DNA of 64,000 nucleotides, taken from the NCBI RefSeq assembly GCF_963921235.1, contig NC_086097.1, positions 75,394,001 through 75,458,000 of the forward strand. The letters are read 5' to 3'. The stretch is from Mobula hypostoma (Eukaryota). The translations under genes and the position numbers were made by a program. The notes under the pieces are model-generated. The model was not told the DNA's origin and ran no database searches. It was given only the letters and a program-made list of their open reading frames with translations. Shown piece by piece: positions 3,165 through 63,520 of this stretch (the stretch's first letter is position 1; each line of letters starts with the position of its first letter).

Positions 3165-3600
3165 CATCTACTGGTAAGATGCTAAGCTGTCTCCTTGAAC
3201 TGCTGCAGTATTTCTGGTGGAAGTACTCCCACAGTTAGGGTACACCTTCCAGGAGTTCAACTCAGCAACCATGAGTGAATAGTAACTTCAATTCCAAGTC
3301 AGGTTGCCGGCCAACTTGGAAAAGAACCTGCACTTAATAGTTGTAAACATAAGATATTCTGCAGAATCTGGAAATCCTGATAAAAGTTCTCAGGCTGAAA
3401 CGTCAACTGTTTATTCCCCTATATAAATTATGTGTCACCTGCTGATTTCCTCCAGCATTTTATGTGTCTGCTTGTAGTAGTGCTGCTCCGTGCTTCTGAA
3501 CCCCTTGTCCTTCTTGGTGTTGGAGGTTGTGAGTTTAAGAGGTGTGCCTGGAGGAGACATTAAACCTATACACCATCTGCTCTTGGTTAAGTGTGGAAGT
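3165..3600 (-). mobile_element. old CR1/L2-clade LINE 3' fragment, interrupted by a Penelope-derived insert
   Basis: ctggtaagatgctaagctgtctccttgaactgctgcag is the reverse complement of the tail at 35220-35260. Same family as 31017-32190. Confidence 0.5.
3345..3470 (+). mobile_element. short Penelope-derived pLTR element with degenerate hammerhead core
   Basis: cctgataaaagttctcaggctgaaacgtcaactgtttattcc...cctgctgatttcctccagcattttatgtgt, preceded by an inverted terminal piece (attctgcagaatctggaaatcc). Confidence 0.7.
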
Positions 3601-3614
3601 TCTTGTAACAATAG

Positions 3615-3830
3615 CTTGCCTCAACATCTTGACCAATATTTATCCTTCAGCCTATATCACAAAAACACATTGTTTGATTGTTAGCACATTGATGTTCTGG
3701 GAGCTTGTTGCACATAGATTGGAGATAACTACAGCGACCACACTTCAAAGTATTTTGTTCACTATAAAGTGCTCTGGAATATCCAGAATGGGGTATGTAC
3801 TGTGCTATAAAAATGCAACTCCTTTCTTTA
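3615..3830 (+). mobile_element. ancient Deu-type (SacSINE1-like) SINE, 3' half with L2-like tail
   Basis: Motifs gaccaatatttatccttca, cacattgatgttctgggagcttg, cacacttcaaag and gctataaaaatgcaactcctttcttt. Confidence 0.5.
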
Positions 3831-4369
3831 TGAGCCATTTGGATCTAGGCAATTCTGAAAATGCAATTTCATTAACAAAATAAAAAAAAGCAAGCAATCA
3901 AGAAGCGGCTGGAATAATAATTATTTATCTCTTCTAATGGCTGAAGAGCCACTTAAGCATATCTAAATGTTGGAAAGTTCATTAATACTGCTGTGAAGTC
4001 TGTAATATTTAAACCAAATGACCTACTGTCAAGTTTTGCATTGTTAATCTCTGTTATAGAAAAACAGAAGTAGATTTCTGATGTAGGAGAACGGCATCTC
4101 ATTGTGCAAAGAAGGAAGCAAGCTTGGCAGAAGGTCAAAGCAATGTCAGGCTAGAGGAGGTTTGAAAGAAATTATTTACTGAAAGGCACAAACTAATTAA
4201 GGGAATATTTCTAGCAGAGTAGAGGAACATTTATATGAAGATGATGGAAATAATGAGTAAGATGCATACAAAAATTGTTCTAATGAAGAATATATCACTA
4301 AGGCTTTGGAAATGTTCGGGGATCTCATTTTGGGGGAGGGAAATACAAAATGGAAAAAATGGCACTAAA

Positions 4370-6678
4370 TAGATCCTGAAAACCCTGGATAGAGTGGACG
4401 CAGAGAAGATCTTGCCATTAGCTGGGGAGTCTAGATCCAAGGGCAAGGCTGCAGAATAAGACCTTGAGACCATAAGATATAGGAGCAGAATTAGGCTATT
4501 TGGCCCGTCAAGTCTGCTCCATGATTTTGTCATGGCTGATCCAATTTTTCTCTCAGCCCCAATCTCCTGCCTTCTCCTTGTATCCCTCATGCCCTGACCA
4601 ATCAAGAATCTATTAATCTCTGCCTTAAATATACATAAAGACCTGGTCTCCACAGCTGCCTGTGGTAATGAATTCCAGAGGTTCACCATTCTCAGGCTAA
4701 AGAAATTCCTCCTCATCTCTGTTCTAAAAGGATGACCCTCTAAGCTGAGGCTGTATCCTCTGGTCTCACACTCTCCCACCATAGGAAACATCCTATCCAC
4801 ATCCACTCTACGTAGGCATTTGACCATTCGAAAGGTTTTAATGAGGTCACTCCTCATTCTTCTGAATTCTAGTGAATACTGGCCCAGAGCTATCAAATAC
4901 CATTCAACCCTGAAATCATTTTCGTGAACCTCCTTTGAAACTTCTCTAGGTTCAGCACATCCTTTCTGAGATAATGGCCCAAAACTGCTCACAATACTCC
5001 GTGTGGTCTCATCTGTGCTTTATAAAGTCTCAACGTTACATCCTCACTTTTATATTCTAGTCTTCTTGTAATGAATACTCACATCATGTTTGCCTTCCTC
5101 ACCACAAACCCCACTTGCAATTAACGTTTAGGGAATCCTGTACAAGGACTCCCAAGTTCCCTTGTGTCTCAGGTTTTTGTATTTTATCTTAATTTAGAAA
5201 ATAATCAACCCTTTAATTTCTTCTGCAAAAGTCCATAATCATACACTTCCCAGCACTGTATTACACCTGCCATTTCCTTGTCCATTCTCCTAATCTGTCT
5301 AAGCCCTTCTGTGGTCTCTCTACTTCCTCAAAACTATCTAACCCTCCACCTATCTTCATATCATCTGCAAACTTTGCAACAAAGCCATCAATTCCATCAT
5401 CCAAATCATTGACATATAACATAAAAAGAATCAGTCCCAGTGTAGACCGCTGTGGAAAACCAATAGTCACCAGCAGCCAGTTAGAAAAGGCTCCCTTTAT
5501 TCCCACTATTTTCCTTTTGCCAATCAGCCACTGCCTTATCCATTCTAGAATCTTTCCTGCAATACCATGGGCTTGTAGCTTAATAAGCAGTCTCATGTGT
5601 GGCACCTTGTCAAAGGCCTTCTGAAAATCCAAGTACACAACATCAACTGATTCTCCTTTGTCTATCCTGTTTGTCATTTCTTCAAAGAATTACAACAGAT
5701 TTTTCAGGTAAGATTTTCCCTTAAGGAAACCATGCTGACTACAACCTATTTTATCATGTGTGCCAAGTACCCTGAGACCTCTGCCTTAATAATTGACTCC
5801 AACATCTTCCCAACCACTGAGGTCAGACTAACTGGCCTATGGATCCCTTTCTTCTGCCTCTCTCCCTTCTTGAAGTGTGGGGTGACATTTGCAATTTTCC
5901 AACCTTCCAGAATCATTCCAAAATCTAGTGATCCTTGAAAGATCATTACTAATGCTTCCACAATCTCTTCAGCCACCTCTTTCAGAACCCTGGGGTGTAC
6001 ACCATCTGGTCCAGGTGACTTATCTTCGTTCAGACCTTTCAGTTTCCCAAAAACCTTCTCTCTAGTTATGATAACTTCACACACTTCATGATCCCTGACA
6101 CCTGCAACTTCCACCATACTGGTAGTGTCAAAATACTTATTCAGTTCATCTCTGATGAGAGTATCCACTCTCATCTCTCTTTTACATTTTATGTATTTGA
6201 AGAATGTTTTGGTATCCTCTTTAATATTACTGGCTAGCTTAATTTTGAATTCGATCTTTATCTTCTTAATGACTTTTTTAGTTGCCTTCAGTTGGTTTTC
6301 AAACGCTTCCCACTCCTCACTCATTTTTTGCTCTGATATATGCCCTTTCTTTGGCTTTTATGTTGGTTTTGACTTCTCATGTTAGATATATTTCTCCTTT
6401 AGAATACTTCTTCCTCCTGAAGTACCCTTTAAAACTGAATGTGGAGGAATCTCTTCAGCCCAATGGTGGTGAATCTGTGGAATTCATTTCCACAGAATAC
6501 TGGGCAGGCCAAGTGATTGGATGTATTTAAGGCAGAGATTGACAGGTTCTTGATTGGGAAGGGGGTTTAGGATTACCAAGAGGAGATGGAAGAATAGTAC
6601 TGAAAATAATCAGCCATGATTGAATAGTGGGGCTGAATGGCCAAATTCTGCACCTGTATCTGATGTTTTTATGGTCTA
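4370..6678 (+). mobile_element. older CR1 3' fragment split into 4370-4461 and 6421-6678
   Basis: ...gagtctagatccaagggcaaggctgcagaataag joins to tacccttt...ggtggtgaatctgtggaattc... and a CR1 tail. The two parts are colinear with the CR1 ORF2 C-terminus. Confidence 0.7.
4462..6420 (-). mobile_element. 5'-truncated CR1 LINE (ORF2 RT pseudogene)
   Basis: ORF fragments KSPGPDGVHPRVLKE, VDVVYLDFQKAFDKVPH, KFADD and RNFFSLRMVNLWNSLP. The CR1 3' tail lies at 4462-4560. Confidence 0.95.
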
Positions 6679-7102
6679 CATGCCAAGTATATTAAGGCAT
6701 GCTAGGAAAGATGGGCACTGCAAGATTAAATTTCCAAAGTGCAATGGCTTCAGATATCTAAAAGGGACATGGCAAACCAGTTTTAGAAACAATGGTCTGA
6801 TTCCTCATGAATTGATATAAAAGGTCTCATGTCTATTACACACAAACTGCAAGGGAACCTGCAAAGCATCATCTAACCCAATTTCAAACCTTAGGTTCTG
6901 GCATCAAAAATACATATTGTACTTGTATAGAAGATGCTTATTTTATATGGAATATATGGAATCAGGATGATGCCATTTCAGAGTTCTGATGAATTGTTTC
7001 TGTCTTCATAGATACTGTCCAGATTGTTGTTTTTCCAATGACTTTTGTTTTTATTTCAGATTTTCAAACAGGAACTTACTGTTTCATTTAATTATGTGTG
7101 TT

Positions 7103-9950
7103 TATAGTTACAGAGTCAAAAAGAACTACAGCACAGAAACAGACCATTCAACCCATCTAGTCCATACTGGACTGTTATTCTGCCTACTCCCAACAACCTG
7201 CACCCAGCTCATAGTCCTCCATTTCGCTCCCATCCATGTACCTTCCAAACTTCTATGAAGTGCTGCAGTCAAACCCATATCCACCACTTCTGCTGGTAGC
7301 TTGTTCCACACTCGCACCACCTTTTGAGTGAAGAAGATCCCCCTCAGGTTCCTCTTAAATATTTACCTTTCACCCTTAACCTATGACTTCTAGTTCTCAT
7401 CTCAATGAACCTCACTTGAATTTACCCTATCTATACCTTTCATAAATGTGTATGCCAATGTGTATACCTCTATTCCCTAGAGTGTAGGAAAATGAGGGGA
7501 GATTGATAACGTCCTAAACTATTCAAACTTTCCCTATAACTCTGGTCCTCAATCCTAGCAACATCTTTGTAAATTTTTCTGTACTCTTTCAACCTTACTG
7601 ATATATTTCCTGTGGGTAGGTGACCAGAAATGCACACAATGCTCCGAATTTGGTCTCACCAACGTCTTATACAACTTCGTGTTTGCGTTTTTAAACTGTA
7701 CTTAATACTCTGATTTATGAAGGTAAATCTGCCAAAGTTCTCTTCATAACCCTATCAACCTGTGCTACCACTTTCTAGGGATTTTGGAACTGTATTGCCT
7801 TTGTTTTATCACCCTCCTCAGTGCCTTACTCTTCACTGTGCAAGTCAAGTCATGGTTTGTCCTCCCTATGTGCAATACTTCACAATTGTCTGCATTAAAT
7901 TTCATCTGCCATTTTCTGACCATTTTCCAGCAAGTTCAGATACCACTCCAAGCTTTGTTTGCCTTCTTCGCCATCCAGTGCACCTCTAATCTTTGTGTTA
8001 TCCTCAAATTTGCTGATCCAGTTTAGCGTATAAACATCCAAATCATTGATATAGATGACAAACAATAATGGACCTGGCTCCAATCCCTTCGGCACAATAC
8101 TAGTCATCGGCTCCATTCAGAGAGACAATCATCTACTACCTCTCTCTTGAGTTCTCCCACTAAGCCACAATTGACCTCACCACTATTACAAAACAATCTA
8201 TTTAAGACCTCCTGCTTCCCCTTTAGCTCCATGCATAGATGGTCATGCTCATCTTCAAATGGACCTGTGTTGTCTTTTTCTATCCTTTTGCTCCTAATAT
8301 ATTTGTAGATGCCAAAATGCTGGAGGAACTCAGCAGGCCAGGCAGCATCTATAAAAAAAAGTACAGTCGATGTTTCGGGTCAAAACCCTTCGGCAGGACT
8401 GGAGAGAAAAAGCTGAGGAGTAGCTTTATAAGGTGGGGGGTGGAGAGAGAGACACACAAGGTGATAGGTGAAACCTGGAGGGGGATGGATGAAGTAAAGA
8501 GCTGGGAAGTTGTTCAGTGAAATGAAGTGAGAGATGGAAAAGGGGATGGGAAATGGAGAGCAGGGGGTGGGGGCTGGGGGCCATTACCAGAAGTTTGAAA
8601 AATCAATGTTCATTTCATCGGGTTGAAGGCTACCCAAACAGAATATAAAGTGTTGTTCCTTCAACCTAAGTTTGGCCTCATCACGACAGTGGAGGAGGCC
8701 ATGGATGGACATATCAGAATGGAACGGGAATGGGAAGTGGAATTAAAATGGGTGGCCACTGGGAGATCCTTCTCCCTTCCCCATCTCCTTTCCCCTCTCT
8801 CTCCAATCAACTTCCCAGCTCTTTACTTCATCCCTCCCCCTCCAGGTTTCACCTATCACCTGGTGCTTCTCTCTCTCCTCCCCCCACCTTTTAAATCTAC
8901 TCCTCAGTTTTTTTCTCCAGTCCTGTCGAAGGGTTTCAGCCCAAAACGTCCACTGTTCTTTTTTCTGTAGATGCCGCCTGGCCTGCTGAGTTCCTCCACC
9001 ATTTTGTGTGTTTTGCTCAGATTTCCAGCATTTGCAGATTTTCTCTTGTTTATCTGTAGATGCCCTTGGATTCTCCTTCATCTTGTCTGCCAGAGCAACC
9101 TCATGCCTTCTTTTTGCCCTCAGGATTCTCGCTTCAGTGTTGTCTTGCATTTCTTATACTCCTCAAGTGCCTCATTGCTATGTATCTCTTCTTCTTCTTA
9201 ACCAGAGCCTCAATCCCACTCAAAAACCAAGCTTCCCTAAGTCTATTAGTCTTGCCCATTATTCTAACAGGGACATAAAAACTGTGTACTCTCGATATTT
9301 CACTTTTGAATCCCTCTCAATAAACAAACATCCCTTTGCCAGGAAACCACCTATCCCAATCCACACTTCCATCAAAATTGGCCTTTCTCCAATTGAGATT
9401 CTCATCCTACCCTTCTCCATAATTATCTTGAAACTAATGGAATTGTGATCACTAGATCTGAAGTAATCCCCTACTCTGTCACCTGCCTTGTCTCATTCCG
9501 TAATAGGAGATCCAGCATATGATGGAATAGAGTTTGTCAAATGTGTTCAGGAAAGTTTCTTTCATCAATATGTTGTTGCAGCCCCTATATATTGATGAAG
9601 AAAACTTTTCTGAACACATTTAACAACCATCTAGTGCTTTTATGTGGAAAGTTATCATCATCTACTAATGCCATCTTATTTTTCTTGCAACTGTCTGCTA
9701 TTTGTCTATATATTTGCTCTTCTAATCCTGCTATTGGGAGGTCTATAATATAATCCAATTAACATGGTCATCCCTTTCTTCTTCCTTAATTCCATCCATA
9801 TAGCTTCAGTAGACAAGCCCTATAGTCTGTCCTGTCTGAGTACTGCCATGACGTTTTCCCTGATGAGTAATGCCACCCCTCCCCCTTTAATTCTTCTGCC
9901 TCCATCATGTATAAAACAGAATCCCAGGATTGTTTAGTTCTCCTTTCCTA
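7103..9950 (-). mobile_element. degraded CR1 LINE (endonuclease to RT and 3' UTR), internally deleted and interrupted
   Basis: ORF pieces VRVWNKLPAEVV, GPLLFVIYINDLD..KFEDNTKI and RAKRRHEVALADKMKENP. The tail is at ~7103. Confidence 0.9.
8314..9050. mobile_element. Penelope-like element with inverted pLTRs (fold-back), inserted in CR1
   Basis: ~230-bp inverted arms (about 8314-8545 and 8775-9006). The centre holds the GIY-YIG C-terminal region on the minus strand. A 14-bp TSD tat(t/c)tgtagatgcc lies at 8300-8313 and 9051-9064. Confidence 0.85.
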
Positions 9951-16187: not shown

Positions 16188-18578
16188 GACTTTGGCATCA
16201 CATCAACTCCAATAATTTGGCAAAGAGCAATGGGCCAAGTGCTCCAAGATATCCCAGGAATACAATGTCACCTTGATGACATCATTGTGACTGGCAAGAA
16301 TGATGAAGAGCACCACTAGGACTGTGGTGAAGTGTTTACAGGCTGAGTGAATATGGTCTGCGTGCAAAGGGAGAAAAATGTGAGTTTTCAAGAATGAAAT
16401 CTCATATTGTGGGCATGTCATTGACAAGCAGGGCTTACAAACGTCACAAGAGAAGACTGAAGCACTGCTATAGGCACCCAAGCCAGAAAATGTGTCACAA
16501 CTCAGGTCAACCTTGGGCCTTGTAAACTACTACCACAGGTTTCTCCCAAATGTTGCTACATGCTGCACCCATTGAATGCACTGTTGCAAATAGGAACAAA
16601 GTGGGAATGGTCAGAAAGATGTGCACAGATTGACTGAGGAGTTCTTAAGCTATTATGGAGAATAAAGAAGTTCCACAACTACTTCAATGGATAAAAGTTT
16701 GCACTAGTGACAGATCACCAGCCTCTTGTGTCCATTTTCAATCCCAGTGAGGTCTGATGCCTGGTTGCAACATTGGGGACTTTTTCATGGAGCCCACTCT
16801 TATGCCATAGAGCTCAAGGATACCATATAACACAGTAACACTAACGGCTTGTTATGTTTTCCACTGTTGACAACTAAAGAAGAGAAGTCTTCGTTTTGTG
16901 ACCCAGCAGAAGCGTTCCATACAACACTGGTGCACCGGTTGCCTGTAACAGATTTGGAAATACAAAGAGAAACAAGGAATGACCCGACATTGTCGAAAGT
17001 CTATGACATCACCATGCAAGAATAGCCAGCTCAGGATAATCCTATGTTTCCAGCACTCTCAGTGAGACGAGACCAGCTGTCTGTATGTCAAAGACGCTGA
17101 TATGTGGGTCTTGTGTTGTGGTTCTCTCTAAAATGCGCACCAGAGTGTTAGAAAGTCTGCATGAAGCACACTCGGGTACAGTAAAGATGAAGAGTCTCAA
17201 CTGGAGCTTTGTGTGGTGGCTGGAATAGATAGACAGATTGAAGACTTGACCAAAGTCTGTTCAGGATGGCAAAAAGTTCAAAATGCACCCCCATGGGCGC
17301 CGTTACACCCATGAGAGTGGTCGTCTTCACCATGGCAAAGAGAACATATTGACTTTGCTGGGATATTCATGGGCTCCATGTTTCTGATTGCTGTGGATGC
17401 TCATTTGAAGTAGCTTGAAGTCATACCAATGAAGTCAACCATCTCTGAAAAGACTGTTACCACTCTGAGGACTATCTTCACCAGAAATGGCTTACTTGAA
17501 CAAATAGTAAGTGAAAATGGACCAAAATACACATCAGAAGAATTCAGATTATTCAAGAAGAAAAATGGCATCAGACATTTCAAGTCTGCTCCTCACTACC
17601 CAGCAACAAATGGGTTAGCTGAAATGTTTATCCAAACCTTCAAGAAGTCCATTAAAGCAATGGACAATGAGGACATTTCTCTACAGCACAAGGTGGACAA
17701 CTTCCTTTTTGTGTATTGGAACCCTGCTCATGCAACAACAAATCAAACACCTGCAATGCTGTTCGTGAGCAGAAATCTGAGATCTCACATAGACCTCCTG
17801 AAACCAGAACTACAGAAGGAAGTGCAGAATAAACCGTTCAGCCAGTTGCCAAGTGAATCAGCAAGGAGCTTCAAGATTGGGCAGGAAGTCCTAGTGCATG
17901 ATTACCGAGAAGGCAAGTGGACACCCGGTAGGGTAGCTACAGGAACTGGACCACTGATGTACACAGTGGATGTTGGAGATCAGATATGGAGACGTCATGT
18001 GAACCAGATACCTGATGCTCAGCCGAAGAACACGCCTGAGTCAAATGCAGCTAACAGGTGGGCACTTTACAGCCACCGGACTTACCTCTCCGTGATGATC
18101 ATGTCACTAACAACAACGTGAGACTGGCAATCGAGAACATTGTCTTTGACAAGACACCTGTCAAACTTGATGTCATTCCACAGGTCTACAGGCACTATCC
18201 TGAAAGAAACAGAGCAGTACCTGAAAGAATGAATCTTTATTATAGTGAGGTTAGTTACGGACCATTATTGTGAAAGCATGTTTATTTGAAAATGGTTTGT
18301 GAAAGGGAAATTGAATGTTTTGTACATATTCAGTTTTATGTTACATTAATCTAAATGGGGAGGAAGTGTAATGTATAGATCTATTTCTTTTAGAGCAATG
18401 ACTCCCCTTAGCACTACACATGGACTGATAACTTACCTATGCACATTGATCTGTCATCTACACATGCATATAGCTCTGCTCTCCCTCTCTCTCTCATTAC
18501 AATATGAGTACACAAGTTATAGCCATCTCCTGCATGCATGTTTTTATTTAATTGATATGTAGCTGCATAGACACAACA
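16188..18578 (+). mobile_element. Ty3/Gypsy LTR retrotransposon remnant (RT, RNase H, integrase, PPT, 3' LTR)
   Basis: RT FGITSTPIIWQRAM..CHLDDIIVTG. Integrase IVSENGPKYTSEEF..SAPHYPATNGLAE (17429-18121). PPT aaatggggaggaag at 18353-18366. Domain order is RT-RH-IN, with many stops and frameshifts. Confidence 0.92.
18367..18578 (+). repeat. 3' LTR of the Gypsy element
   Basis: Starts TGTAATG immediately after the PPT and ends CACAACA. Confidence 0.75.
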
Positions 18579-21262: not shown

Positions 21263-21302
21263 AGATGAATTCCTTAATGTCCCTTAAAAAAAATAACTGT
21301 TT

Positions 21303-21482: not shown

Positions 21483-21487
21483 AGGCG

Positions 21488-22191: not shown

Positions 22192-22194
22192 CAC

Positions 22195-35325: not shown

Positions 35326-35424
35326 TAATAAAATGGGTTAGCTGATGTAACTTCAATTTATTGGTCTCACCTGGAACATTTTACTCACCTTAAGTGGGAA
35401 GGTGGTGGTTTTGATCTACAGAAG

Positions 35425-35523
35425 TAACACACACAAAATGCTGGAGAAACTCTGCAGACCATGCAGCATCTATGGAAAAGAGTACAGTGAACATTTTGGG
35501 CCTAGACCCTTCAGCAGGACTGA
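35425..35523 (-). mobile_element. Penelope-derived pLTR fragment
   Basis: acacacaaaatgctggagaaactc...cagtgaacattttgggcctagacccttcagcaggactg. Confidence 0.8.
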
Positions 35524-49984: not shown

Positions 49985-50720
49985 GAAATTTCTCTTCCAC
50001 CACCGCCGATGCAGCCCTCACCCACATCTCCTCCATTTCCCACACTTCTGCTCTCATCTCATCCTTCTATCGTCATAACAGGGATAGGGTTCCCCTTATC
50101 CTTCCATAACACCCCATGAACCTCTGTATCCAGCACAACATTCTCCACAAGTTCCGCCATCTCCAATGAGATCCCACCACAAAGCATATATTTTCCTCCC
50201 ACCCCTGTCAGCTTTCCATATGGATCATTCTCCACATATCTCCCGTGTCAACTCATCCTTCCCACCCATTGATTTCCTTCTCGGCACTAATCCCTGCAAG
50301 CTCGACAAGTGCTACACCTACCCCTACAGCTCCTCCTTCACCATCGTTCAGGACCCAAACCATCCTTCCAGGTAAGGCAGCACCTCACCTGCGAGCCTGT
50401 CAGAGTCATCTATTACATCCAGTGCAGCCTCCTCTACATCGGTGAGATCCAGCGTAGATTGGGGAACAGCTATGTTGAGCACCTTCACTCTGTCCACTGT
50501 GAAAGGCAGGATCTCCCAGAGGCTCACGTTTCGATTTGACCTGGTCTCACCTATAACCTGCCACTTTGTACTCCTTTCCTTCAGCCACATTCTTATTCTG
50601 ACGCTGCCTCCTTCCTTTCCAGCCCCAATGTAGGGTCATGGCCCAAAACATTGGCTGTTTATTCCCCTCCATTGATGCTGCCTAACCCGCTGAGTTCCCC
50701 CGGCATTTTGCGGGTGTTGA
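49985..50720 (+). mobile_element. Penelope-like element fragment with GIY-YIG endonuclease and pLTR
   Basis: SFQVRQHLTCEPVRVIYYIQC..LYIGEIQRRLG..EH (50309-50539), followed by a pLTR with a degenerate hammerhead at 50620-50657. Confidence 0.85.
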
Positions 50721-52100
50721 TCATGTTTGGCAAAGCTGTGCCCTGTGGTGTTTTGTCAGGAGTTTAAACCAGAAATGCTTCTACTGGCAGTAAAAAAGAG
50801 AACACCAGAACACCAGCTGAGCGGAGCAGTGAAGCCCAAGTTAGAAGGAGAAAAGAGCATGAAGAAAGGCTGGAATACTCAGCAGATAATTTAGTACCTG
50901 TGAAGTGGCTGGACCAGTCAGTGTTTCAGGAGTGGAGCCTTTGTTCTTCCTATTTTCAATGCCGGAATCTCCTTTCTTGAAAACTCATGTCAGACTAACT
51001 TCAACACACTATGTCTATCTGGATAGGTGGCAACGTCATATATTTCCCTTCCTTCAGACAACAGAGCAGAAAATGAAGCAGGTCTTCACTGAGTTAAATT
51101 GGCTTCAAAAAAGAATTAGGAGAGGTAACAAAGAATATTCTATAGTTATTCCTAAGAATCCCCACTTTTAGATGTTGTTGAGAACATTTTTGTTTCTGCC
51201 TGTGCTCTGATCTCACCCAGATTTATCCCACCATGATTTCTCTTGGATAGCTCTCAAACATTGGGCTGCTTGTCTCTGACTGTTAGCGTATGACTAAATA
51301 CGGGAAAGATTAATCCATTCATTAGCCAAGGAAATTTGAAATTTGAACCAAACCACTGCAACATTGCTGTTATTTGCTGCCAGGCTCTGCCTCTGAGAGC
51401 AAGTCTGAACCATCAGTACGATAGCCTGTTTCTATCTCCCTAACATCACCGGCTCAAATCACACTGCAGAAATGCTCACGCTGATCATTATTTCTTTTTG
51501 TCTTCACAGTTCTAATTCAGTCTTAACCAGGCTCTCTGTTCTGCTCTTCATAATCTTGAGGTACGTTAAACTGTGAGCTCATCTCCAAACTCAGTCCATG
51601 GCTTGTTTCCCAAGCACTTGTTTCCTGACCACCGTGTGAATGTGGATTCCTTCAGGACCACCTCCCTGCCATACAGCCATCCCTCCTCAACAGCCCGACA
51701 AACCTCATTGTTCTTGCTGTTCTGGCCTCTTAAGCCTGCTGAATTCAATCGCACCACAACTGGTGCTAGGTGACTGTGATGGAGGTAGATCCTTTCATAG
51801 CTTTTAGGAAATATCTAGATATATTTGAACCACCGGGGCATAGCACATAAATGAGATTAGTATCAATGGTTAGCATGGATATCTAGGTTACATTCCTTGT
51901 TTCTGTGCTGTATGACTGAATGACTGGACATTAATATGTGCCACATCTACAGGCTTTTGGAGTTCCCTTCCTCGCCACCTCTCTTTTCCCCATTTGAGAC
52001 AGCCCTTAAAACCAATTGTCTAGTTGCATTCTTTGGCACCTCTTTACATGGGTTAGCATCAACAATCTGCTGGAGGAATTCAGTTGGTTGAACAGCATTA

Positions 52101-53690
52101 ATGGTTCACTGGTTCCTTTTAATATCAGAGAATGTATACAGTGTATACCCTGAGATTCTTACTCTTCACAGGCGTCCACGAAACAGAAAAAAGAAACACC
52201 AAAGAATGAATGACAGAAAAATGTTAGAGCCTCAAAGCCCCCCTCCCCTGCCACGCACAAGCAGCAGCAAAGCATCGACCTCCGCCCACCCCACTTGTTC
52301 CAGTAGCAAGTATCAGCCACCCACCGTGCAAGCAATAGCAAAGCCCCTAACGAGAGCAAGTTCTAGTCCATCAAAACCACTGTTCATCCCAACAGCTTGA
52401 CATCCCACAGGCTCTCTCTCTCTCTCTCTCCCTAATGAGGGAGAGGGAAGTATCACTCCTGCCACGAGGAGAGGGAGGCCAACAGCTCACTGTTTCGATG
52501 CTACAGTCTGCTGTGTCACTTTATTTCGAGCAGTGAACTCTCTCTCACCATTGAGAGAGAGAGAGGAAGAGAACCATCGCTCAAGTGCAGAGGCCTCCGA
52601 CAAACCCACCCACCGTCTCGACGTTCCAATCTCAGGCGATGCTTCAGTCAGTGACACCGTCAAGGAATCAGGTCATCCACAGGGCTGCACAGGGCCACGC
52701 ACCAAAGGCACACGTCCTCCAGGCTGCTCCTGGAGATGTTGAAAACACTAGGCTGCTCAGGAAGCCTCTAGAGCGGAACCCACTGCTGTTTGAGGGCAGC
52801 TGTAGGTCAAAGGCTCCAACAAGACCCCAGCCACACTGAAAAGGTAAGAAGGGATATTAAGTAGTCATAGTCATAGTCATACTTTATTGATCCCAGAGGG
52901 AAATTGGTTTTCAGTTACAGTTGCACCATAAATAATAAATAGTAATAAAACCATAAATAGTTAAATAGTAATATGTAAGTTATGCCAGGAAATAAGTCCA
53001 GGACCAGCCTATTGGCTCAGGGTGTCTGACCCTCCAAGGGAGGAGTTGTAAAGTTTGATGGCCACAGGCAGGAATGACTTCCTATGACGCTCCGTGTTAC
53101 ATCTCAGTGGAATGAGTCTCCGGCTGAATGTACTCCTGTGCCCACCCAGTACATTATGTAGTGAATGGGAGACATTGTCCAAGATGGCATGCAACTTAGA
53201 CAGCAACCTCTTTTCAGACACCACCATGAGAGAGTCCAGTTCCATCCCCACAACATCACTGGCCTTATGAATGAGTTTGTTGATTCTGTTGGTGTCTGCC
53301 ACCCTCAGCCTGCTGCCCCAGCACACAACAGCAAACATGATAGCACTGGCCACCACAGACTCGTAGAACATCCTCAGCATCATCCGTCAGATGTTAAAGG
53401 ACCTCAGTCTCCTCAGGAAATAGAGACGGCTCTGACCCTTCTTGTAGACAGCCTCTGTGTTCTTTGACCAGTCCAGTTTATTGTCAATTCGTATCCCCAG
53501 GTATTTGTAATCCTCCACCATGTCCACACTGACCCCCTGGATGGAAACAGGAGTAACCGGTACCTTAGCTCTCCTCAGGTCTACCAGCAGCTCCTTAGTC
53601 TTTTTCACATTAAGCTGCAGATAATTCAAAGAGAAGAATTTAAACTGTTTCGTAGATGAACTCAATGAAGTCGCCCTCTAGTGCCATCAT
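52101..53690 (-). mobile_element. non-autonomous retroelement (5' end gatggcactagagggcgac), split by a Rex insertion
   Basis: Reverse-strand tail at 52101-52170 with a G/T-rich 3' region like the 14112 family. The sequence resumes at ~53628. Confidence 0.6.
52861..53627 (-). mobile_element. Rex1/Babar LINE 3' fragment
   Basis: LNVKKTKELLVD..YKYLG..KKGQSRLYFLRRL and FYESVVASAIMFAVVCWG. (TATGAC)n tail. Confidence 0.9.
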
Positions 53691-53948
53691 TAGCTCCTCC
53701 CGTTGTCAACAGCTGTAGGAAGATAGGAATCATGATTGTTTCACCTCTTGAAGCAAGCATTGACAAATCATTCCCCAACCACCCCACCACAGATGCTGCT
53801 CAACCCATTGAGTTCCTCCAGCACATACTTGTTGCTCCAGATTCCAGCATCCATTCCTTTGTGTCTGCGTGTCTGCGTGACTGAGCACTGTTGTTTGTTT
53901 GGTCACACTGAAATAAGTACCTCAGGACGTAATGCAGATCAAGTATTA

Positions 53949-54414
53949 AGGCTGATTGATACTTGTGCTTACAGGCTACGTCGTAGGCCTGATTTATACT
54001 TTCATGTAGCCCTACGCCGTAGCGAGCATGCGTAGTTGTGTCTGCGTCGCTCTGCAATTCACTACCAAAACCCTAGTTGGCGGTGGGGTTTCTATGCCAC
54101 TGTGTTGAGTTTCTTCGCGTGAGACATGGACGAGGAAATACATTTCAAATATTTTCGAATGTCGGCAGGTAGATTTGATGATTTGGTTCATCGTCTCCAA
54201 CCATTTATTCACATCAGTGTACAGACAGGGCGGAGAAAAGCAACCTGAAATGCGTATGAAGAAATGCGATGCTACCAAGCAGACCAATCACAGTTGTTGT
54301 GGTCTGCATCACCACGACATGTGAGTTACACTTTTGGGGAGGTGCACGTCACCCTACGGCATAGGGTACGCGATACCTGTGGCGTACATTTGACGCACAA
54401 GTATAAATCAGCCT
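53949..54414 (+). mobile_element. PIF/Harbinger MITE with transposase remnant
   Basis: TIRs aggctgatt(g/t)atacttgtgc and TTA TSD (53946-53948, 54415-54417). Internal [26 protein letters not shown] starts at 54126. Confidence 0.88.
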
Positions 54415-54489
54415 TTAGTACAGAGCCAGCAACAAAATCAAGGTCTCCTGTTGTTCCTGGCCCCACCGGGCATGCATCAGTTCCAAGCA

Positions 54490-54980
54490 GACTCATCTTG
54501 GAGCAGCAACACCTCATATTCCATCTGGGAAGCCTCCAACCAGATGGCATGAACATCAATTTCTCTAATTTCTCCCCTCCCCCCTCTCTTTTTCCATTCC
54601 ACATTCCAGTTCCCTTCTTACCCCTTCTCTTCTCTTCACTGCCCGTCAACTCCCTATGATGCCCCTCCTCCTTCCCTTTCTCTTATGGTCCACTCTTCTC
54701 TCCTATCAGGTTCTTCCTCTGTCAGCCCTTTAGCTTTTCCACTTATCACCTCCCAGCTTCTCACTTCATTCCCCCACCCCCCCCAGCTTCTCCTCACCTG
54801 TTTCAACTATCACTTGCCAGCTCGTGCTCCTTCCGCATGCCCCCCCACTTTCCTATTCTGACTTCCTTCCCCTTCCGTTCCAGTCATGAAGATGGTCTTG
54901 GCCTGAAACGTTCACTGTTTATTCCTCTCCACAGATGCTGCCTGACTTGCTAAGTTCCTCCAGCACTTTTTGTTTATTGT
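54490..54980 (+). mobile_element. Penelope-like 3' fragment and pLTR
   Basis: LEQQHLIFHLGSLQPDGMNINF, then a pyrimidine-rich tract and a hammerhead-like motif at 54881-54917. Confidence 0.85.
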
Positions 54981-55532
54981 TCAGAATGCATCCCGCCCCA
55001 ATGAGGGGATCGAATCCAGAATCCTTTAATACCGTATCCAATTGAATGCCCGTAGGCATTTAATGAAGTTCTATAATCTCCTTGTAAAGATTTGTAGATT
55101 TTAGAATCCTCCATCATTTCTCTGCCACATCTCCATTCTCCCTTGAGGCTGCGAAACCCTCAGGTTTGCAGACAACAAGCATATCCTGGCTGGAACAAGG
55201 CCGTATTCAATCTCTAACTCTACACCTCGAGATATTTTTGTGATTATTCGCACAGGAACCATGAAGAAATCATAAATATTAATATTTCAATGTACAGATA
55301 AAGCTCCACAAAATTGATAAGATACACATGTATAAAATATTTTTGCATTTTTCAGTTTATAAAAAGCTACGCTTCAAGTTTGGCATAGCATGTCTTGCCA
55401 TATTGAGATTCCTTTCTCATTTTGTTTTATATTCACCAGCTTTATAGGAAAGAATGCAGTGGCATATTGAGGTCAATGCTTAGGGGAGGGAGATTGTAGC
55501 AGATACCACCTGACAGAACTGAATTACATGTT

Positions 55533-55720
55533 AACTCACACAAAATGCTGGAGGATCTCAGCAGGTCAGGCAGCATCTATGACAATGAATAAACAGTTGA
55601 CGTTTCGGGAAGACCGTCGACTGTTTATTCATTTTCATAGATGCTGCCTGACCTGCTGAGTTCCTCCAGCATTTTGTATGTGTTGCTCTGGATTTCCAGC
55701 ATCTGCAGAATCTCTTGTGC
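55533..55720. mobile_element. Penelope-derived mini fold-back element
   Basis: ~70-bp near-perfect inverted arms at 55533-55602 and 55615-55684. Confidence 0.85.
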
Positions 55721-58458
55721 TTATGAAGTACACACTTCCTCTAACATACTTGCTTTCCAGATAGATTTGGCTATTATACAGATTCCAGCACATTTTCACT
55801 GATGAAGCAACACCCACCCTGTGGAATCCTAAACTGCACTTACATACAAGAAATGCCTTAGAGCATTTACAGCTGCACAATGCATTGTGTAAGATCTCTT
55901 TCAGGGCTGATTGGTACCAATTCATTTCCTAATGCCTCTGTGAAATGCCTCAGGATGTTTTCCTTCTGTCTAAAAGGCCAGATCTGAATACAAGTTGTTG
56001 CTGTTGATCTTGGATCCATTTAGATCTTAAGAGAATGGCATTTGGGAAATACAGTCATCCAAATTGTGTCCTCATTATTAGAGGGCTAAAACTGGGCTGT
56101 AGAAAGTCAGCTAACAAATACAGAACGAAAATGTAACAAATAAATGTATGATCTGTAGCAAAAGGCAGTTCTATTGTGTTTTGTACAGTTAACCTCAGTC
56201 AATGGCACATCAGGCTTTGAGCTGTACAGTGGCACCAATTAAATGTCGAATACATTCTGACATTGAAGACCTTGTTTTACTTTCAGGCTGTCGGCTAGAT
56301 GTTTGTTGGATCAGGTGGGCCACTCAAATGAATAGACGGTCTTTAGCCAGAGCATATCCTGCATAGCACACCTGGTCTGTATTTGGAAAAGAAAGTCTCT
56401 CTTGTTTTGTTAGGGTGGAAGCCATGAAAAGCTAAAGCAGCTTAATTTATCCCAAAAGAATGTTAAGTTCAATAGGGAGGTTCATCACAGGTGACTCACT
56501 TGAAATTCAAGATTTTAAAGGTGATGTGCCAAGCTACAAAAAAAAGTCCTTATAACTTCTGCATTTTATAAAACATTTCTTCAAGGGTATAGTGTGTGGA
56601 GAAAAAAAAGAGGTTTGCTTTTAAAGAAACAGGAGATGAAATCAGAGTGTTAGATAATGTTCCCAGCAGATAACTACTACATAAGCAATAAAATGCCTTG
56701 AATTGAGAAAATGGTTTTGCAAATATATTTAACAGTGCAATGTGTGTGCTGTTTATAACATCTAAAAACAGTCCACTTGGGGAAAAGGAAAAGATACTCG
56801 ATGAACAAAATTTATCCCAATCTTTGTAGGAATTTAGAGAAACGAGATCTTGTCTGTCATTTGATGCTATCTTGCAACAAGGTAGTCTCTGTGGAACAGT
56901 TTGATCACAGGATTCTCATTCACAAACAGACAGGTTAAACACTTAAATGCTAGCAAATCCTGCACAGCCCTGTGGGAAATTTCAGTTTAATCCCAAACTT
57001 ATAGGAGGACAATCAAAGCCCAAAGCCAGGGTAACAAATCTGATCCTCTGTTACAATCTGTCCTCTCCTGGGACACCAGAGTCACTCCCTATACAAGACC
57101 GCGATGGATAAATACCTAAATGATGAGATACACTGGGACTGCTGGAGAAGCATCTAGCTTTGGCTATTCACTTTCAATTTCACATTACAGCGTGAGAGGC
57201 AATACTTTCCCAGAATATAGCAGACAGTCCTGATTATTATAAGTTGAAGTGTGGCTTAAGGAATGATTAATGATGGTGCCAGAAGAAAACAAAGCTGAAT
57301 GAGAGTTATCTCCAATCCACCTGCTCACAGATGGGAATGAAAATGGCCCCAGCATGCCCTGATATTAAAACACCAAAAGGGAAGGTGTTAATGCTGTAGA
57401 TATGTATGAAAAAGATAACATGTCATGCATCTAAAGTCCTCTTACCGCAAATAAATCATTATCCCATAAATGGGGCTCAGTATGTGATTAGTATTATAAG
57501 CGCAGTGGACTTCACATACTCATTTTTTTTTAAATAATCAGACCCAAGCAAGTCCCTCTTGTATTGATGCTAACATTAATAGACAGGAATTGGGAGGGGG
57601 GGTGGTCTCTGACAAAAGAGATTGTTGAAGAGGCTTTGTGGCAGAGACTGTTCAGCAGCAGGGCAATGATGCCACCTTGTGTTGCTTTAAGGTATTACAT
57701 AGACATGTGGCTGAAAGGAAGGTTTCAATTTCAGGACCCAACCAAGCCCCCTGTTTCGAAGTTCCAAACCGTCACTTATTGTCTAAAAAATCAAAAGTTG
57801 CGAAGCACTGCACACTGTAGCATAACACAATTGGCAGTAAATAGTGTAACCAGCAGGTTTTTGATTCATTGTTCTATTTCTTAAGATTCTTCACAGCAAT
57901 TAATACAGTAATATGAATTTGGATAATAGATAAACAAGGTGGTAATTTAAGTAGTTGTCAGTAATTTCTCTGTATTCTATTGTGAAGCAGAAAGGAATGT
58001 ATAAATAGTAAAATAAAGGGTCAAATCTAATGGGAACAAAGAGGGATGAGAAGCCTAATTATTAACATCCGTCTGAACAGGGCCTGAAGGATGGGATTAT
58101 AAGGATTAATCTGTGTCTGTCTGTCAAAAAAAGTCTCAGTCATGACTAATTGTATTGTCACAAAACTTCTTCTAATAATCAAACTCCATTAGCTAAACCC
58201 TGGAAAATGTGTTACCTCTGGCAATTTTAATGAAAACCACGCAGAAGACCCATTTCCACACGAAGATCTGGAAATATATCATGCAAGCATGTCCATTAAT
58301 TTGAGGCTCAAAAGAAGACTGTAATCTTCAAATGTTTACTTTTAAATTGAAAAATAGAAATTAATTTCCTTTTTGTATATGTATATGTCCATGGAGGTGG
58401 TGATGGTGATTATAGAGTAAAATTCATTGATTGCTCCAGAACATTCATTTTATTAATA

Positions 58459-59286: not shown

Positions 59287-59674
59287 TATATTTTGAGAAG
59301 AGATGCACACCCTTAACATGCACAGACCAGTTTAATGGAACACACCCAACACCTGACCCTTCAGTTAAAGTAGACATTTGACTCATCTGAATTAGGATTA
59401 AATCATTTCTTATTTTTTGTTGAGCAGGATAGCAACATTCCACAACAGACTACATATGTATCCCAGGAACCTGATCTATCAACAAGTTCATCAGCTATTA
59501 CATTTTAAACCTTGGGAAACTAATCAGTAACCACACAGAGATGTAGCACAAGAAACTGCGTTAATATCTTGAGGTGATTATAGTAGTATTAATACTGGTT
59601 ATTGCTGGTTGCACTAACCACTCTTTGTGAAAGTGGCATCAACAGCAAGGTCTTCATCTGTGATGTTTTCAGAA

Positions 59675-59712
59675 TAGTCCTGACGAAGGGTCTCGGCCTG
59701 AAACGTCGACTG
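59675..59712 (+). ncRNA. minimal hammerhead ribozyme motif (Penelope type)
   Basis: agtc-CTGACGA-agggtctcggcct-GAAA-cgtc-gact: intact core boxes, stem I agtc/gact, stem II hairpin, palindromic ACGT stem III and a GUC cleavage triplet. Confidence 0.75.
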
Positions 59713-59810
59713 CGCCTCTTCCTATAGATGCTGCTTGGCCTGCTGCGTTCACCAGCAACTTTGATGTATGTTGCTTGAATTTCCAGCATCTGCAGAATTC
59801 CTGTTGTTTG
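59679..59810 (+). mobile_element. solo Penelope pLTR insertion
   Basis: Flanked by cagaatagt at 59670-59678 and 59811-59819. Homologous to 8918-9050. Confidence 0.85.
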
Positions 59811-62800
59811 CAGAATAGTACTGTTAGGTTTTCCTGTGTACTGCTGCAGTTTCAAGTAGTGCTCCTTACAGACAATCACATTATTTAATAGGTGTTATTT
59901 GCTGCTGCTCACTCTTAAAAGGACCTACCAAAATGTAAGCAGCACTTTCCCAGCTACAGGGAGTGTTGCAACTGATGATAGAAGGATGAAATGTTGCAGG
60001 AGTCAACAGGGTTTAGACAAGCTATTAAGAATAATGCATGCAGAGGGGATGTTTTAGTCTGCAATTGGAACTACACAGACCCTTCCAGGAAGGAATTGGC
60101 CTGAATGAGTGCAGTTCTCTGAATGGGGAAGTCTGCCATGCAAGAAATTGTACATTTGCACTCCTGTGGACTGATGGACAAGTAGATGAAGTCATTCCTT
60201 CCAAAGTAAGTAGCAGGGTCACATCCCGACTGCAGCAGTGAGATAGGGCAGAGATCAGCATCGGCAGTGTAGGATTACCCACGGACAAAGCTGTCCAGCT
60301 ACACATGACAGGCTGTATTTGTAGGTGTGTTCAATGATCTTAATGAGGGCAGAGTACAATTTGAGGGTTGGCCCTTTAAACTAGATGGGATTAGCAAAAC
60401 CTGGACTTTCGGAGAGAAAGTAAGAATTGTCATGACTTGGATGCAGTGGTGTTGAACAAATGCAAACAAATGTACGTTATTTGGGAATGCCTACATCGGA
60501 AAAATGGTGCAAGAGCAAAAATTCCTTCTAAAAGTCCACAGCCGTATTTATCAATCAGGTGCTCAGACATTAAGAAATGTATGAAAGTAGCTTACAGGTA
60601 AAGCCAGTTTTCCCCAGCCCAGTTGGAGTTTACGAGAAAAATTTAGGCTTTCGTACCCAAAATCCAATTTAGTCTACAGCTGTTCTGATACCAATGCTTC
60701 CTTTCACCAGAAGCTTCTGATCTCAGTTTTCGATCATTTCACCAAACATCTCTTTCTCTCTACTTTAATGCCATTTGACAATGAATGCATAGTAGGAAAA
60801 TGAAAATGAAATTGAACCTTGTTGGGATTACTTTCTGTTGGAAAATAATCTACGTTTAGAGCGGTTCGGAATATTCCTTCAGAAGCACAGCCTGATTTCA
60901 GTGTCAAAGGGACATCCCAGATAAGCAGTTACTGTACAACATTAGGAATATTGGAAAAGTATTATGTTATTTTCCCATTATAAAAAATATCAATATCCAA
61001 TTTAATAATAAGAATTAAGTTAGCTTCAACTGCAGAGAAAAACATCCAAATTTGTACCACTCCCTGCATGTTGAATGTTTCTTATGCTCATCCCTATAAG
61101 TTCCAACTCAAATTTTTGGATTCCTGAGCCTAGAGAAATAGTTTCTTTCTTCTGTCAGGAAAACTTTGATTTGACCAGGGCTTTACTATAACCTTAAGCA
61201 CTTAGATATCAGGGCCAGCGTCCCATTAGTTGTTCTGATAATTTTTCGTATTTGTCTCAATGATCTGTATGGGTGGACACCATTTCTCATTGGTCCTGTG
61301 ATATCTCTAGATTTAAAATGTTCCATTCATTTTAGATCCCAAGTGTATGATTATTTTCTAGACTTTGCCATGAAGCGCTTTGTTGATGTGACCATTCCCA
61401 GTGTGTGCACATCATGCACAGAGAGCAACAAGTCTGTGCAGTTAAACAAAGCAAATGAGAGTGAGTAAGAATGTTTTCTAAGGAAAAGGTGGAATAAGGC
61501 CAGGACACATAGTGACAATAGAAAAGCTTGCCCTTGTACAGCACCATTCACATTCCTTTTGGGACATCTCAAAACACCTGAGAACTAAATAAGAGTTTTT
61601 GAAGTATAATCCCTGTTGCATGGACATGAGGGTGGGTGGGTGTATGGAGTGTAAGCAACTCGTTTCTACAGACAGCAATATGATAATGAGCTCATAACCT
61701 GGCTTCGGAAAGCTGAGCGAGGGGCAGGAAGGAAGTAATGCAGCTGCATCCATCTGGGAGAAGACACCTCTTAACCCCTCTCTTGCCCCGGAACAACACG
61801 ACAGATTTTGGAGCTCAGGTTTCTAGAATGGGAATCCGGAGGGAGAACAGGGGAAACCTGTCCCAAGACTTGAGATCATGAACAAAATAGGCATAAGCTA
61901 GCAGATGAAAGAATACTATGTGCCATATACATTGCCCAGAGATATGCATTAAAAATAATGTGACATTTGTAGGAGTGTGGATCATGGCCAACAGCATTGA
62001 TTGTGCTTACCACTGCTTGGGTTTCTTTATGCACCATAATGTGCATTCTCTTGTATGAGCTGGATTGCTGAATTAAGTTTTAACATTATGTGCAAGGAAT
62101 TGTATGACTTCCAATGTAAATGAAGCATCAATGGAAGGCACTTTAATGAAACTCAATATCATAAAATCCTCATCATGTGGAATGAAAAATCAATGTAGAT
62201 TTTCAATGGAGAACAAGCATTAGGGGATTGCTAAACCAAACTTAATTCATTAGACACATGCAAAGACTAATACCTCCCCTCTCAATTGGAAATTTTACAC
62301 CATCCACCCGCAACCCCCAATCTCAATAACCAAACCAGAAGCCTCTGATAACAATTTCCTCTTCTTTTTACTCAGACATTGGCTGTTGAGAATATTACTA
62401 CCATTTATACTTCCATTAGAGTCACTTTTTCTTAATATCCTATCATCCAACACTTTAGTCATGCACATTTAACCTCCTTGTCAGTTAATTAGTCACCCTC
62501 CATACTAGCCAAGACCTTCATTCTTTCCTTGCCTTTCCCTCCAAGGCTCTACAATTACTTAAACACTTGGTACATCTTTGACCTCCTCCATTTCTAAGGA
62601 AAAGTCATCAAATTGAAATATAAGTCTGGTAGCCTGGGATTGGTCAGATGTTAATGTTTGTAAAACCTAAATCCCAGTCACAACCCTTCTTGAACACCCC
62701 CCAAATCCATGTTTAAAATATCTGGGACACACAGTGGACAATTGGTGGTCCTTTAGGCAAGTGGTCAATTTTGCTATTTGTTGGTCTACCTCTAGTTGAC

Positions 62801-63359
62801 CAAGCTTCCCGGACATTAAGAAATCTGGCAGCTGAATGGATATGAAACAACTTCAAGTAAATGATAAGCATCTCTTCTACAATGTAGCTGGGTCAAATAG
62901 AACAGATTTATTTTTCCCCACTGCCTCAAGTTTCCCATTCGCACCACACCTACTATATAGAGACTTGCATAATAAAATGTCTTACTGGATTAAACCCCAT
63001 AGTTTTGTAATTAAGACCCTCCAGTGTCAGATTGCCTGAGATTGGGCTATCCAGTCACTGAAGTCCTTGTTCTCTCCAACACCTTCAGCTTCACCATGAC
63101 TGAAGTTACATCCTTTTCATTTCACCCTCATGCCACAGGGACTGCATCCATTTCCCAAAAAGCCTCCCCAGAACTTCTTGTCTTTTTCTGGAGTGATGGA
63201 AAGGAAAGGCCTCCAATGTCACTGTGAGTGCAATACATTACATTATAAAATTTGCACTTCTCTATAGTCTGGCTGCACCAAATTGGTGACTTGGTTTTTC
63301 ACAGAACTTAATGTCATTGTGGGATATTTAGTTTGCTTGGTAGTTCTAAAAGTGAAGCC

Positions 63360-63520
63360 ACAAACAGAAGATGCAGCATCTGCAGAAACAAACTAACAGA
63401 ATTGAAAGATCCTTTGACCAGAAACATTCATTCTTATTTTCTTTGCATTGATGCCACCTGACGTACTGAGTGTTTCCAATATTTTCTGTTTTTATTTCAG
63501 AGTTCCACTATCCACATTTT
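63360..63520. mobile_element. degraded Penelope-derived fold-back
   Basis: gcagcatctg on the left and gatgccacctgacgtactgagtgtttccaatattttctgtttttatttcagagttcca on the right. Confidence 0.45.

Follow-up and report, generated by a model that had tools for sequence, protein, structure and literature searches.

The repeats in the 64-kb window (the whole stretch of DNA that we analysed) are most likely ordinary insertions, now dead, left by an autonomous Neptune-type Penelope-like retrotransposon through several subfamilies in succession. Their repeated motif is the minimal hammerhead ribozyme motif already known from Penelope-like elements (PLEs), and the copies are dead, 5'-truncated members of a family that is very abundant in a ray-like fish. 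They share two 3' ends, have graded 5' ends, run on into coding sequence, carry inverted arms at several loci and show two clear target-site duplications (TSDs). Such 3' and 5' ends, coding continuity and inverted arms have been published as the hallmark of PLEs. Going by published PLE biochemistry, the RT/GIY-YIG protein would nick the target and prime reverse transcription within its own RNA at either of two positions, which lie some 55 and 95 nt downstream of the hammerhead module. The cDNA would then cross the uncut ribozyme, enter the 3' UTR and the ORF and usually halt early, and a second priming on the other strand would give the inverted arm. Insertion can probably do without ribozyme cleavage, since the ribozyme is whole across its cut site in most arms and one amplified subfamily carries the crippling core variant A6C. 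Ribozyme mutants of the Anolis element are also described as inserting normally in vitro (PMC11167929).

The repeat family is real. The motif proposed by a sequence-only reading of this DNA is found in three places at no more than 3 mismatches, where 100 shuffles expect 0.00, and self-BLAST joins the copies with E values from 1e-5 to 1e-73. A search profile made from eight copies gave 19 matches in the window at E<=10: nine below 1e-20 (eight of them the seeds), five between 5e-7 and 2e-3 (63405, 53787, and 52104, 37230 and 50943 on the minus strand) and five at E>=0.3. The reversed window, used as control, gave three matches with a best E of 2. In all there are about 12 loci, which make up 5% of the 64 kb. 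A covariance model of the seven complete ribozyme modules found only those seven past E 0.1, and the six Rfam matches in the window at E<=10 included no hammerhead. Exact motif patterns gave 0 matches in public metagenome and viral contigs. Eleven bacterial loci with the exact pattern in genome contigs were taken as chance, judged from their titles, and so was one metagenome pattern locus lying inside bacterial-looking coding DNA.

The loci differ in how much of the element they retain. The first begins with an inverted arm that has the 3' tail only (3344-3380, minus strand) and overlaps, via a 6-nt microhomology, a forward arm of subfamily B (3372-3475, plus). The hammerhead of this forward arm spans 3372-3409, slightly off the 3377-3410 first proposed; it carries G8A and only 2 of 5 stem I pairs, and the arm stops at the first 3' end. 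Another insertion breaks a LINE relic and is flanked by a 14-bp TSD on the plus strand (8300-8313 and 9051-9064). Its inverted subfamily A arm (8314-8770, minus) contains the GIY-YIG C-terminus (8587-8770), the 3' UTR and a hammerhead at 8364-8401 in which A6C is the sole core change, and has no tail; its forward subfamily A arm (8771-9051, plus) has a partial 3' UTR, a hammerhead at 8918-8955 (A6U, G12A) and a 40-nt tail (9012-9051). A solo subfamily A copy at 35420-35522 (minus) begins at the 5' edge of stem I, has the core A6C, G12A and H17=U in its hammerhead (35485-35522), and has no TSD that we could find. The longest copy, of subfamily B (49960-50722, plus), consists of a broken RT thumb, linker and GIY-YIG (49960-50533), 3' UTR and a decayed hammerhead at 50620-50657, with an internal deletion near 50530. 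Another subfamily B copy (54480-54984, plus) has the GIY-YIG C-terminus at 54486-54572, the 3' UTR and a decayed hammerhead at 54881-54917, and a third subfamily is represented by a solo copy at 59675-59810 (plus) with its hammerhead at 59675-59712 and the tail present. These six further modules, at 8364, 8918, 35485, 50620, 54881 and 59675, had all been placed correctly from the sequence alone. The supposed module with a deleted core at 55593-55625 makes better sense as the place where two subfamily B arms meet head-to-head in a fold-back (55529-55724), both cut within the ribozyme; the forward arm carries the tail, and its start is 0-4 nt away from the predicted cleavage site.

Among the fainter relics that had been proposed, the one near 63400 was recovered by the profile (63405-63540, plus, E 4.9e-7) and so was the one near 37200, an older relic of the 3' block (37179-37230, minus, E 1.3e-3). 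The one near 6980 reached only E 6.3, within an uncertain older relic at 6835-7070 without assigned strand (E 1.6 and 6.3), and the profile search of the window did not find the one near 62590. It did reveal an older relic that had been missed, at 50869-50943 (minus, E 1.7e-3), and there is an old inverted pair with its left arm at 52055-52114 (minus) and its right arm 1.66 kb away at 53777-53860 (plus).

The ends of the copies are informative about how they arose. Copies stop at either of two fixed 3' positions, which are separated by about 40 nt. At the first, 9011, there are at least 721 loose contig ends in X1 and at least 847 in X12, with heterogeneous continuations (agreement 0.40), and at the second, 9051, at least 943 in X12, also with heterogeneous continuation (agreement 0.41). 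The at least 601 and at least 646 loose ends at 8770 have instead a common continuation, which was read by eye as upstream endonuclease sequence. The 5' ends spread from within the ribozyme out to the RT thumb, at estimated distances from the ribozyme edge of about -1057, -402, -368, -148, 0, 0, +3, +10, +25 and +103. The family had been described as TSD-flanked, and this holds beyond chance for two of 10 loci, with 14 and 15 bp and one mismatch each (0 of 400 random pairs reach 14); the longer TSD lies at 59664-59678 and 59805-59819 and overlaps both ends of the copy. At two more loci, 54480-54984 and 55529-55724, possible TSDs of 9 bp with one mismatch are at chance level (53 of 400 random pairs reach that), two loci have only 6-mers and four have none.

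Three of the nine strong arms continue directly into GIY-YIG coding sequence. The supposed GIY-YIG partners at 50309 and 54500 are therefore the 5' parts of the very insertions whose ribozymes are those at 50620 and 54881; another GIY-YIG piece, the third, lies at 8587-8770 on the minus strand. Searches by tblastn with the proteins P0012 and P0001 covered 49960-50533, 8590-8770 (minus) and 54486-54572. The closest protein is from a stingray, P0012 and P0001 being assigned to Hypanus sabinus by their source. Both have a CX2-5CxxC linker and a CxxC inside GIY-YIG, the mark of Neptune and Nematis. The linker between RT and endonuclease is present in P0001, P0012, P0067 and P0009 and in 100 of 119 relatives among the matches listed; the window retains two of its three cysteines (50205-50363), and Nematis shares this linker. 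A C-terminal GIY-YIG is present as three pieces in the window, and its two cysteines between GIY and YIG (CCHH) are a motif of the homologs, one of them being lost in the copy at 50345. The window holds only the region after the RT core, and the Neptune-type assignment is by motifs. An exhaustive protein search with a 61-aa piece of the window gave 143 relatives, and a word-indexed search with the same piece gave nothing. Pfam matched none of the short pieces from the window and gave P0001 a GIY-YIG match below threshold, and P0012 had no relative in viral contigs. Searches for full-length elasmobranch ORFs returned two partial matches and mostly distant relatives, without locating the ORF start, and no full-length element of the family was recovered. 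Among the matches listed, depth in the best endonuclease bin is 32% (X1) and 18% (X12) of that in the best tail bin; contig depth is not copy number and depends on the divergence of the query copy.

The majority sequence has the 11 core residues, stems I and II and the palindromic pair replacing stem III. Of the seven complete modules only the one at 59675-59712 retains all 11 core residues, and the other six have one to four core changes. The core had been expected to be more conserved than the flanks, but 10 of 70 core letters differ (A6 excluded) as against 29 of 320 in the downstream block (Fisher p=0.19); the copies are decaying, and the decay of the ribozyme core is neutral. In the stems, 88.9% of 63 cells are paired and three of nine pairs show a double change, with 5 of 500 shuffles scoring as high, in a set of only seven related sequences. 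Folding energy gives no support, since one of the seven modules reaches z<=-2.

It had been suggested that the short copies belong to a separate SINE or retrozyme, that is, an independent non-autonomous element of 100-135 nt with ribozyme and RT-recognition block, independently transcribed and mobilised in trans by the Penelope protein. We consider this unlikely. The copy at 59675 does look like a clean unit that is flanked by a TSD, runs from the ribozyme edge to the tail and has its core intact; no long member of its subfamily lies within the window, a point against the autonomous-element explanation; and non-autonomous PLE derivatives and PLE-derived retrozymes have been described (PMC8557442; bioRxiv 10.64898/2026.07.22.740005). 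Three arms, from three different subfamilies, begin no more than 5 nt from the ribozyme 5' edge. However, they are 58-69% alike among themselves, while the one ending at 35522 is 81-82% alike to the long arms; they fall into three sequence groups and not one lineage, albeit with weak tree support (37-74), and two of these groups have long coding members in the window. The edge start at 3372 is moreover accounted for by the microhomology with the inverted tail, and the rise in summed DNA contig depth at the ribozyme 5' edge is just 8-14% among the matches listed. What defines retrozymes is the tandem unit, in most cases with a canonical type I ribozyme. None of the nine tandem-repeat rows in the window is at a family locus, the pairs being inverted, and without head-to-tail units with a complete ribozyme retrozyme membership fails. 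Nor did this small sample show a fixed 5' end or a lineage apart from the coding copies: the 5' ends grade without a break into coding sequence, and both this and the ribozyme core, no better conserved than the downstream block, lean against an independent short subfamily.

The same edge starts may be explained without a separate element. Three of 10 arm ends fall in one 6-nt window at the ribozyme edge, for which the simulated chance is 1e-4 to 2e-3 with the window fixed and 0.016-0.15 if it may lie anywhere; truncation is thus unlikely to be random, and the edge is a possible hot spot of 5' ends. A tentative addition to the autonomous-element explanation, which we find somewhat doubtful, is that the edge-start solos are run-off products. 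Reverse transcription from a tail site near the mRNA 5' end would halt at an RNA boundary at the ribozyme 5' edge, either a transcription start or a 3' splice site, and every active subfamily would shed the same stub. This fits the recurrence of edge starts in three subfamilies and the pyrimidine tract followed by CAG exactly at stem I in all four arms retaining UTR. In D. virilis the Penelope intron is described as ending at helix I (PMC4209133), and the element's promoter is internal (PMC2377424). A strand-changing joint at 8919 occurs in one contig of each of the two presumed RNA runs, which come from the same study, and presumed RNA depth rises 1.9-2.8 fold across the edge as against 1.08-1.14 in DNA, among the matches listed. 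This last point is weak, since RNA starts are not visible in contigs and the ratio of RNA to DNA ranges between 15 and 193 along the stretch. There are only three such arms, one showing template microhomology and another target microhomology; the DNA depth step is small, and no exon-1 sequence was seen upstream of solos in the window. It is very improbable that the short copies were reverse-transcribed from RNA cut by the ribozyme. The forward arm at about 55615 begins close to the predicted cut, but this junction is palindromic and ambiguous, seven of the nine strong arms span the cut site with the 5' core, and the Anolis data as presented in PMC11167929 include no reads starting at the cut. 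The A6C subfamily would also be expected hardly to cleave in Mg2+.

Truncated PLE ends with minimal hammerheads are a known kind of repeat, and the recognition of a minimal hammerhead in a Penelope pLTR, its high density, the solo and fold-back forms and the GIY-YIG Penelope machinery were right from the start. The motifs described in pLTRs of metazoan PLEs by Cervera and De la Pena (2014, PMC4209133) share the 5-bp stem I, the extra nucleotide before stem II, G10.1-C11.1 and the palindromic 15.2/16.2 in place of stem III, and are likewise mostly single and dispersed, with opposite-strand pairs 100-700 bp apart. The parts of that study drawn on here do not name cartilaginous fishes, give U3-A8 and not A6C as the core variant, and report 4,000-9,000 motifs in coelacanth and Xenopus, far below the density here, although counting intact motifs only. 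Neptune-clade EN+ PLEs (Craig et al. 2021, PMC8557442) are described with the same C-terminal GIY-YIG with internal CxxC and the same CX2-5CxxC linker, and their insertions show the same strong loss of 5' sequence, the same truncated copy in inverted orientation at the 5' end and the same optional tail of 30-40 bp; unlike them, our family has no full-length copy in the window and is placed in Neptune or Nematis by motif only. Poseidon PAc of Anolis (Frangieh et al. 2024, PMC11167929) resembles it in having two fixed 3' ends bracketing the tail and an uncut RNA template, but belongs to another clade, with an ORF reported to start inside stem II. The two 3' ends seen here match both the optional tail of the former and the two RT start sites of the latter. 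Animal non-LTR retrozymes, as characterised by Cervera and De la Pena (2020, PMC7229834) and Li et al. (2026, bioRxiv 10.64898/2026.07.22.740005), are also non-coding, hammerhead-bearing, pLTR-related and dispersed as monomers, but are defined by head-to-tail tandem units and circular RNA, whereas the copies here grade into coding sequence.

The unusual detail is the A6C subfamily, which accounts for 59-65% of contig depth in four runs, among the matches listed. The same core substitution occurs in the full monomeric hammerhead of one phage, Bcep176, where Mg2+ cleavage is reported as nearly abolished and Mn2+ cleavage as allowed (PMC3088659, PMC7151607); here it is in a dimer-type minimal motif of an amplified vertebrate subfamily, and its effect on cleavage is a prediction. 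We found no report of A6C in PLEs in the literature covered, and it may be listed in the main variant survey (Lunse et al., RNA Biol, PMC5785218). We give an even chance to the idea that a batoid Neptune-type subfamily fixed A6C in its master element and nonetheless underwent wide amplification, in no fewer than two related species. Because the substitution nearly abolishes Mg2+ cleavage in other hammerheads and leaves Mn2+ cleavage, this would be a natural in vivo test, implying either that PLE ribozyme cleavage is dispensable for transposition or that it is gated by Mn2+ or the element's protein.

A true hammerhead SINE in a vertebrate would have been notable, but the findings here speak otherwise. 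This genome holds matched A6 and C6 subfamilies in very many copies, and a comparison of the two in 5' ends, age and cleavage would bear on what the hammerhead does for PLEs and on whether cleavage matters in vivo, extending the Anolis result obtained in vitro. If the fixation of A6C is true and cleavage is dispensable, the fold may be retained for another job, for example marking a promoter, a splice site or a protein-binding site.

The coding pieces of the family and its ribozyme modules appear to belong to one element. Searched exhaustively against proteins, the 61-aa piece at 50345 matched 143 of them; the best, 73% identical, has the source name Hypanus sabinus, as does the longer homologue P0012, and four others of the eight proteins whose names were looked up come from the whale shark, which makes a ray the probable host. 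P0012 and a second homologue, P0001, align at 49960-50533 (+), 8590-8770 (-) and 54486-54572 (+), and both have the CX2-5CxxC linker and internal CxxC, features given for Neptune and Nematis in PMC8557442. A pyrimidine-rich UTR joins every coding piece to the ribozyme module downstream, which implies that the separate GIY-YIG partner and the mini-elements of the sequence-only reading are one Penelope-like element (PLE) cut to various lengths. The longest copy passes from endonuclease to distal UTR at 50520-50540, an internal deletion of about 400 bp compared with other long copies. P0001, whose end is made up of a Penelope linker followed by GIY-YIG, is annotated at its source as a Hypanus sabinus "mucin-2 isoform", a label which is likely to be an artefact from this repeat family.

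The proposed 38-nt motif was found at 3 places with at most 3 mismatches, as compared to none in 100 shuffles, and the module positions first read stand, except that the first module lies at 3372-3409. Self-BLAST joined the copies far past the limits of the motif, and some 3.2 kb of the window (5%) is family sequence. A profile of eight copies gave nine matches in the window at E<1e-20, eight of them its seeds, together with five weaker relics (E<=2e-3) and five matches at chance level; the reversed window, used as control, had a best E of 2. Of the fainter relics proposed, that at 6980 was marginal in this search and that at 62590 was not found.

All arms, the single-orientation parts of copies, have one of two 3' ends in common. 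Contigs of four sequencing runs placed on 8560-9120 (85,805, 77,655, 8,370 and 5,572 pieces) show loose ends with heterogeneous continuation at 9011 and 9051, and these 40 nt are the optional tail described for PLEs (PMC8557442), which in an Anolis PLE sits between two internal RT start sites (PMC11167929). Inverted truncated arms, also a PLE trait (PMC8557442), were observed at 3344, 8314, 52055 and 55529. The insertion at 8314-9051 interrupts a LINE reading frame, both sides of which are visible in its flanks. The copies had been described as having target site duplications (TSDs) on either side; beyond chance, this holds for two of the ten loci tested. At 8963-8975 the arm departs from the contig majority at 8966, 8967 and 8975; each of the three brings the arm into agreement with the 14-bp TSD of its insertion, which lies about 90 nt off, and through two of them more of the arm can pair with the tail (z -4.7). 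They may be due to chance, to local conversion or to a trait of the subfamily. An old inverted arm pair at 52055-53860 is now 1.66 kb apart; the other sequence that separates the arms contains, at 53009-53386(-), a LINE-like reading frame lacking a Pfam match.

The family is of a known kind and was correctly spotted; the retrozyme/SINE interpretation is not supported. An independent, non-autonomous short family is improbable, even though 59675 is a neat unit with a TSD on both sides and three of ten arm ends, whose positions are estimates, lie within 5 nt of the 5' edge of the ribozyme (simulated p 1e-4 to 2e-3 for that fixed stretch, 0.016-0.15 for any such stretch). The three arms starting there are mutually 58-69% alike, whereas the likeness of 35522 to long arms reaches 81-82%, and the spacer of 3372 is common to long subfamily-B copies, tree support being weak for both. 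The edge start of 3372 falls on a microhomology of 6 nt with the inverted tail of that copy, which accounts for it, and the window holds no tandem unit of the family. Among the matches listed, contig depth, a blunt measure and not copy number, rises 1.9-2.8 fold across the edge in the two presumed RNA runs but only 8-14% in DNA, and depth in the best endonuclease bin is 18-32% of that in the best tail bin. Such ends are likelier to stem from repeated stops at an RNA boundary at the edge, though this too is doubtful; a pyrimidine tract and CAG stand exactly at stem I in all four arms retaining UTR, and in D. virilis an intron terminates at helix I (PMC4209133).

The majority sequence has the minimal type I hammerhead pattern defined in PMC4209133, with a 5-bp stem I, CUGAnGA, an extra A, a 4-bp stem II and GAAA, a palindromic CG in the stem III position and UC at the predicted cut site. 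An Rfam search of the window gave no hammerhead match, presumably because stem III is absent. Only one of seven modules retains all 11 core residues, and the copies are decaying. The core was not found to be more conserved than its flank, since 10 of its 70 letters are changed (A6 excluded) and the block downstream has changes at 29 of 320 (p=0.19), and covariation at 3 of 9 stem pairs (5 of 500 shuffles) is suggestive only, for seven related sequences. Between subfamilies, judged by eye, module and downstream block are retained while the adjoining UTR and spacer differ, which fits selection that acts on master elements rather than on their copies. At 8956-8972 and its equivalents another acceptor-like site, made of a pyrimidine tract and AG, has an ATG directly after it and a frame open through the tail, a possible ORF start just downstream of the ribozyme.

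Several other features were observed. About 445 bp between 9-bp terminal inverted repeats (53960-54404), just upstream of the 54480 copy, is probably a MITE. A broken LINE at 26510-29336, in which Pfam recognises parts of an endonuclease and an RT, is presumably of the RTE clade, and LINE RT relics at 4231-6357, 22460-23215 and the flanks of 8314-9051, two pieces of which match RVT_1, we take to be CR1. An integrase core relic at 17414-18121 (rve, under the curated cut-off) is probably from an LTR retrotransposon. There are also a 28-bp tandem repeat at 46062-46728 (about 24 copies, 140-bp higher-order period), unrelated to the PLE family, and short inverted-repeat elements at 1970-2123 and 9534-9626 with arms of 42 bp and 38 bp. 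On the + strand, about 50 nt at 51510-51561 with an acceptor-like signal on one side and a donor-like one on the other may be a host exon.

The copies stop at either of two 3' ends and at graded 5' ends; they display coding continuity and inverted arms, with two TSDs, decay and a C6 subfamily. From what PMC11167929 describes, GIY-YIG would nick the target and RT would start internally at the tail sites on uncut RNA; the junction at 3372 suggests that second priming may be steered by microhomology.

Within the window, subfamily A has C instead of A6 in the cores at 8401(-) and 35522(-), and T in the one at 8918. Since 8401(-) and 8918 are arms of a single insertion, these changes represent two insertions. 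C makes up 65.5% (X1), 60.6% (X12), 58.8% (X17) and 61.6% (X20) of contig depth at 8926, shares that cover listed variants from a query favouring subfamily A and not the whole family; each DNA run has at least 128 contigs with it. As A to C is not what CpG decay produces, the master element probably carried the change already. A6C is known from the phage Bcep176 hammerhead, with a kobs of <0.1 per min (PMC3088659), and the rate of a test ribozyme with this change was 3.55e-6 per min in 0.3 mM Mg2+ as compared to 0.18 in Mn2+ (PMC7151607). Literature on A6C/CUGCUGA hammerheads and PLE core variants, the main PLE-variant survey not included, yielded no link between A6C and PLEs. The family is of interest mostly for this A6C subfamily and for what may be a hot spot at the edge of the ribozyme.
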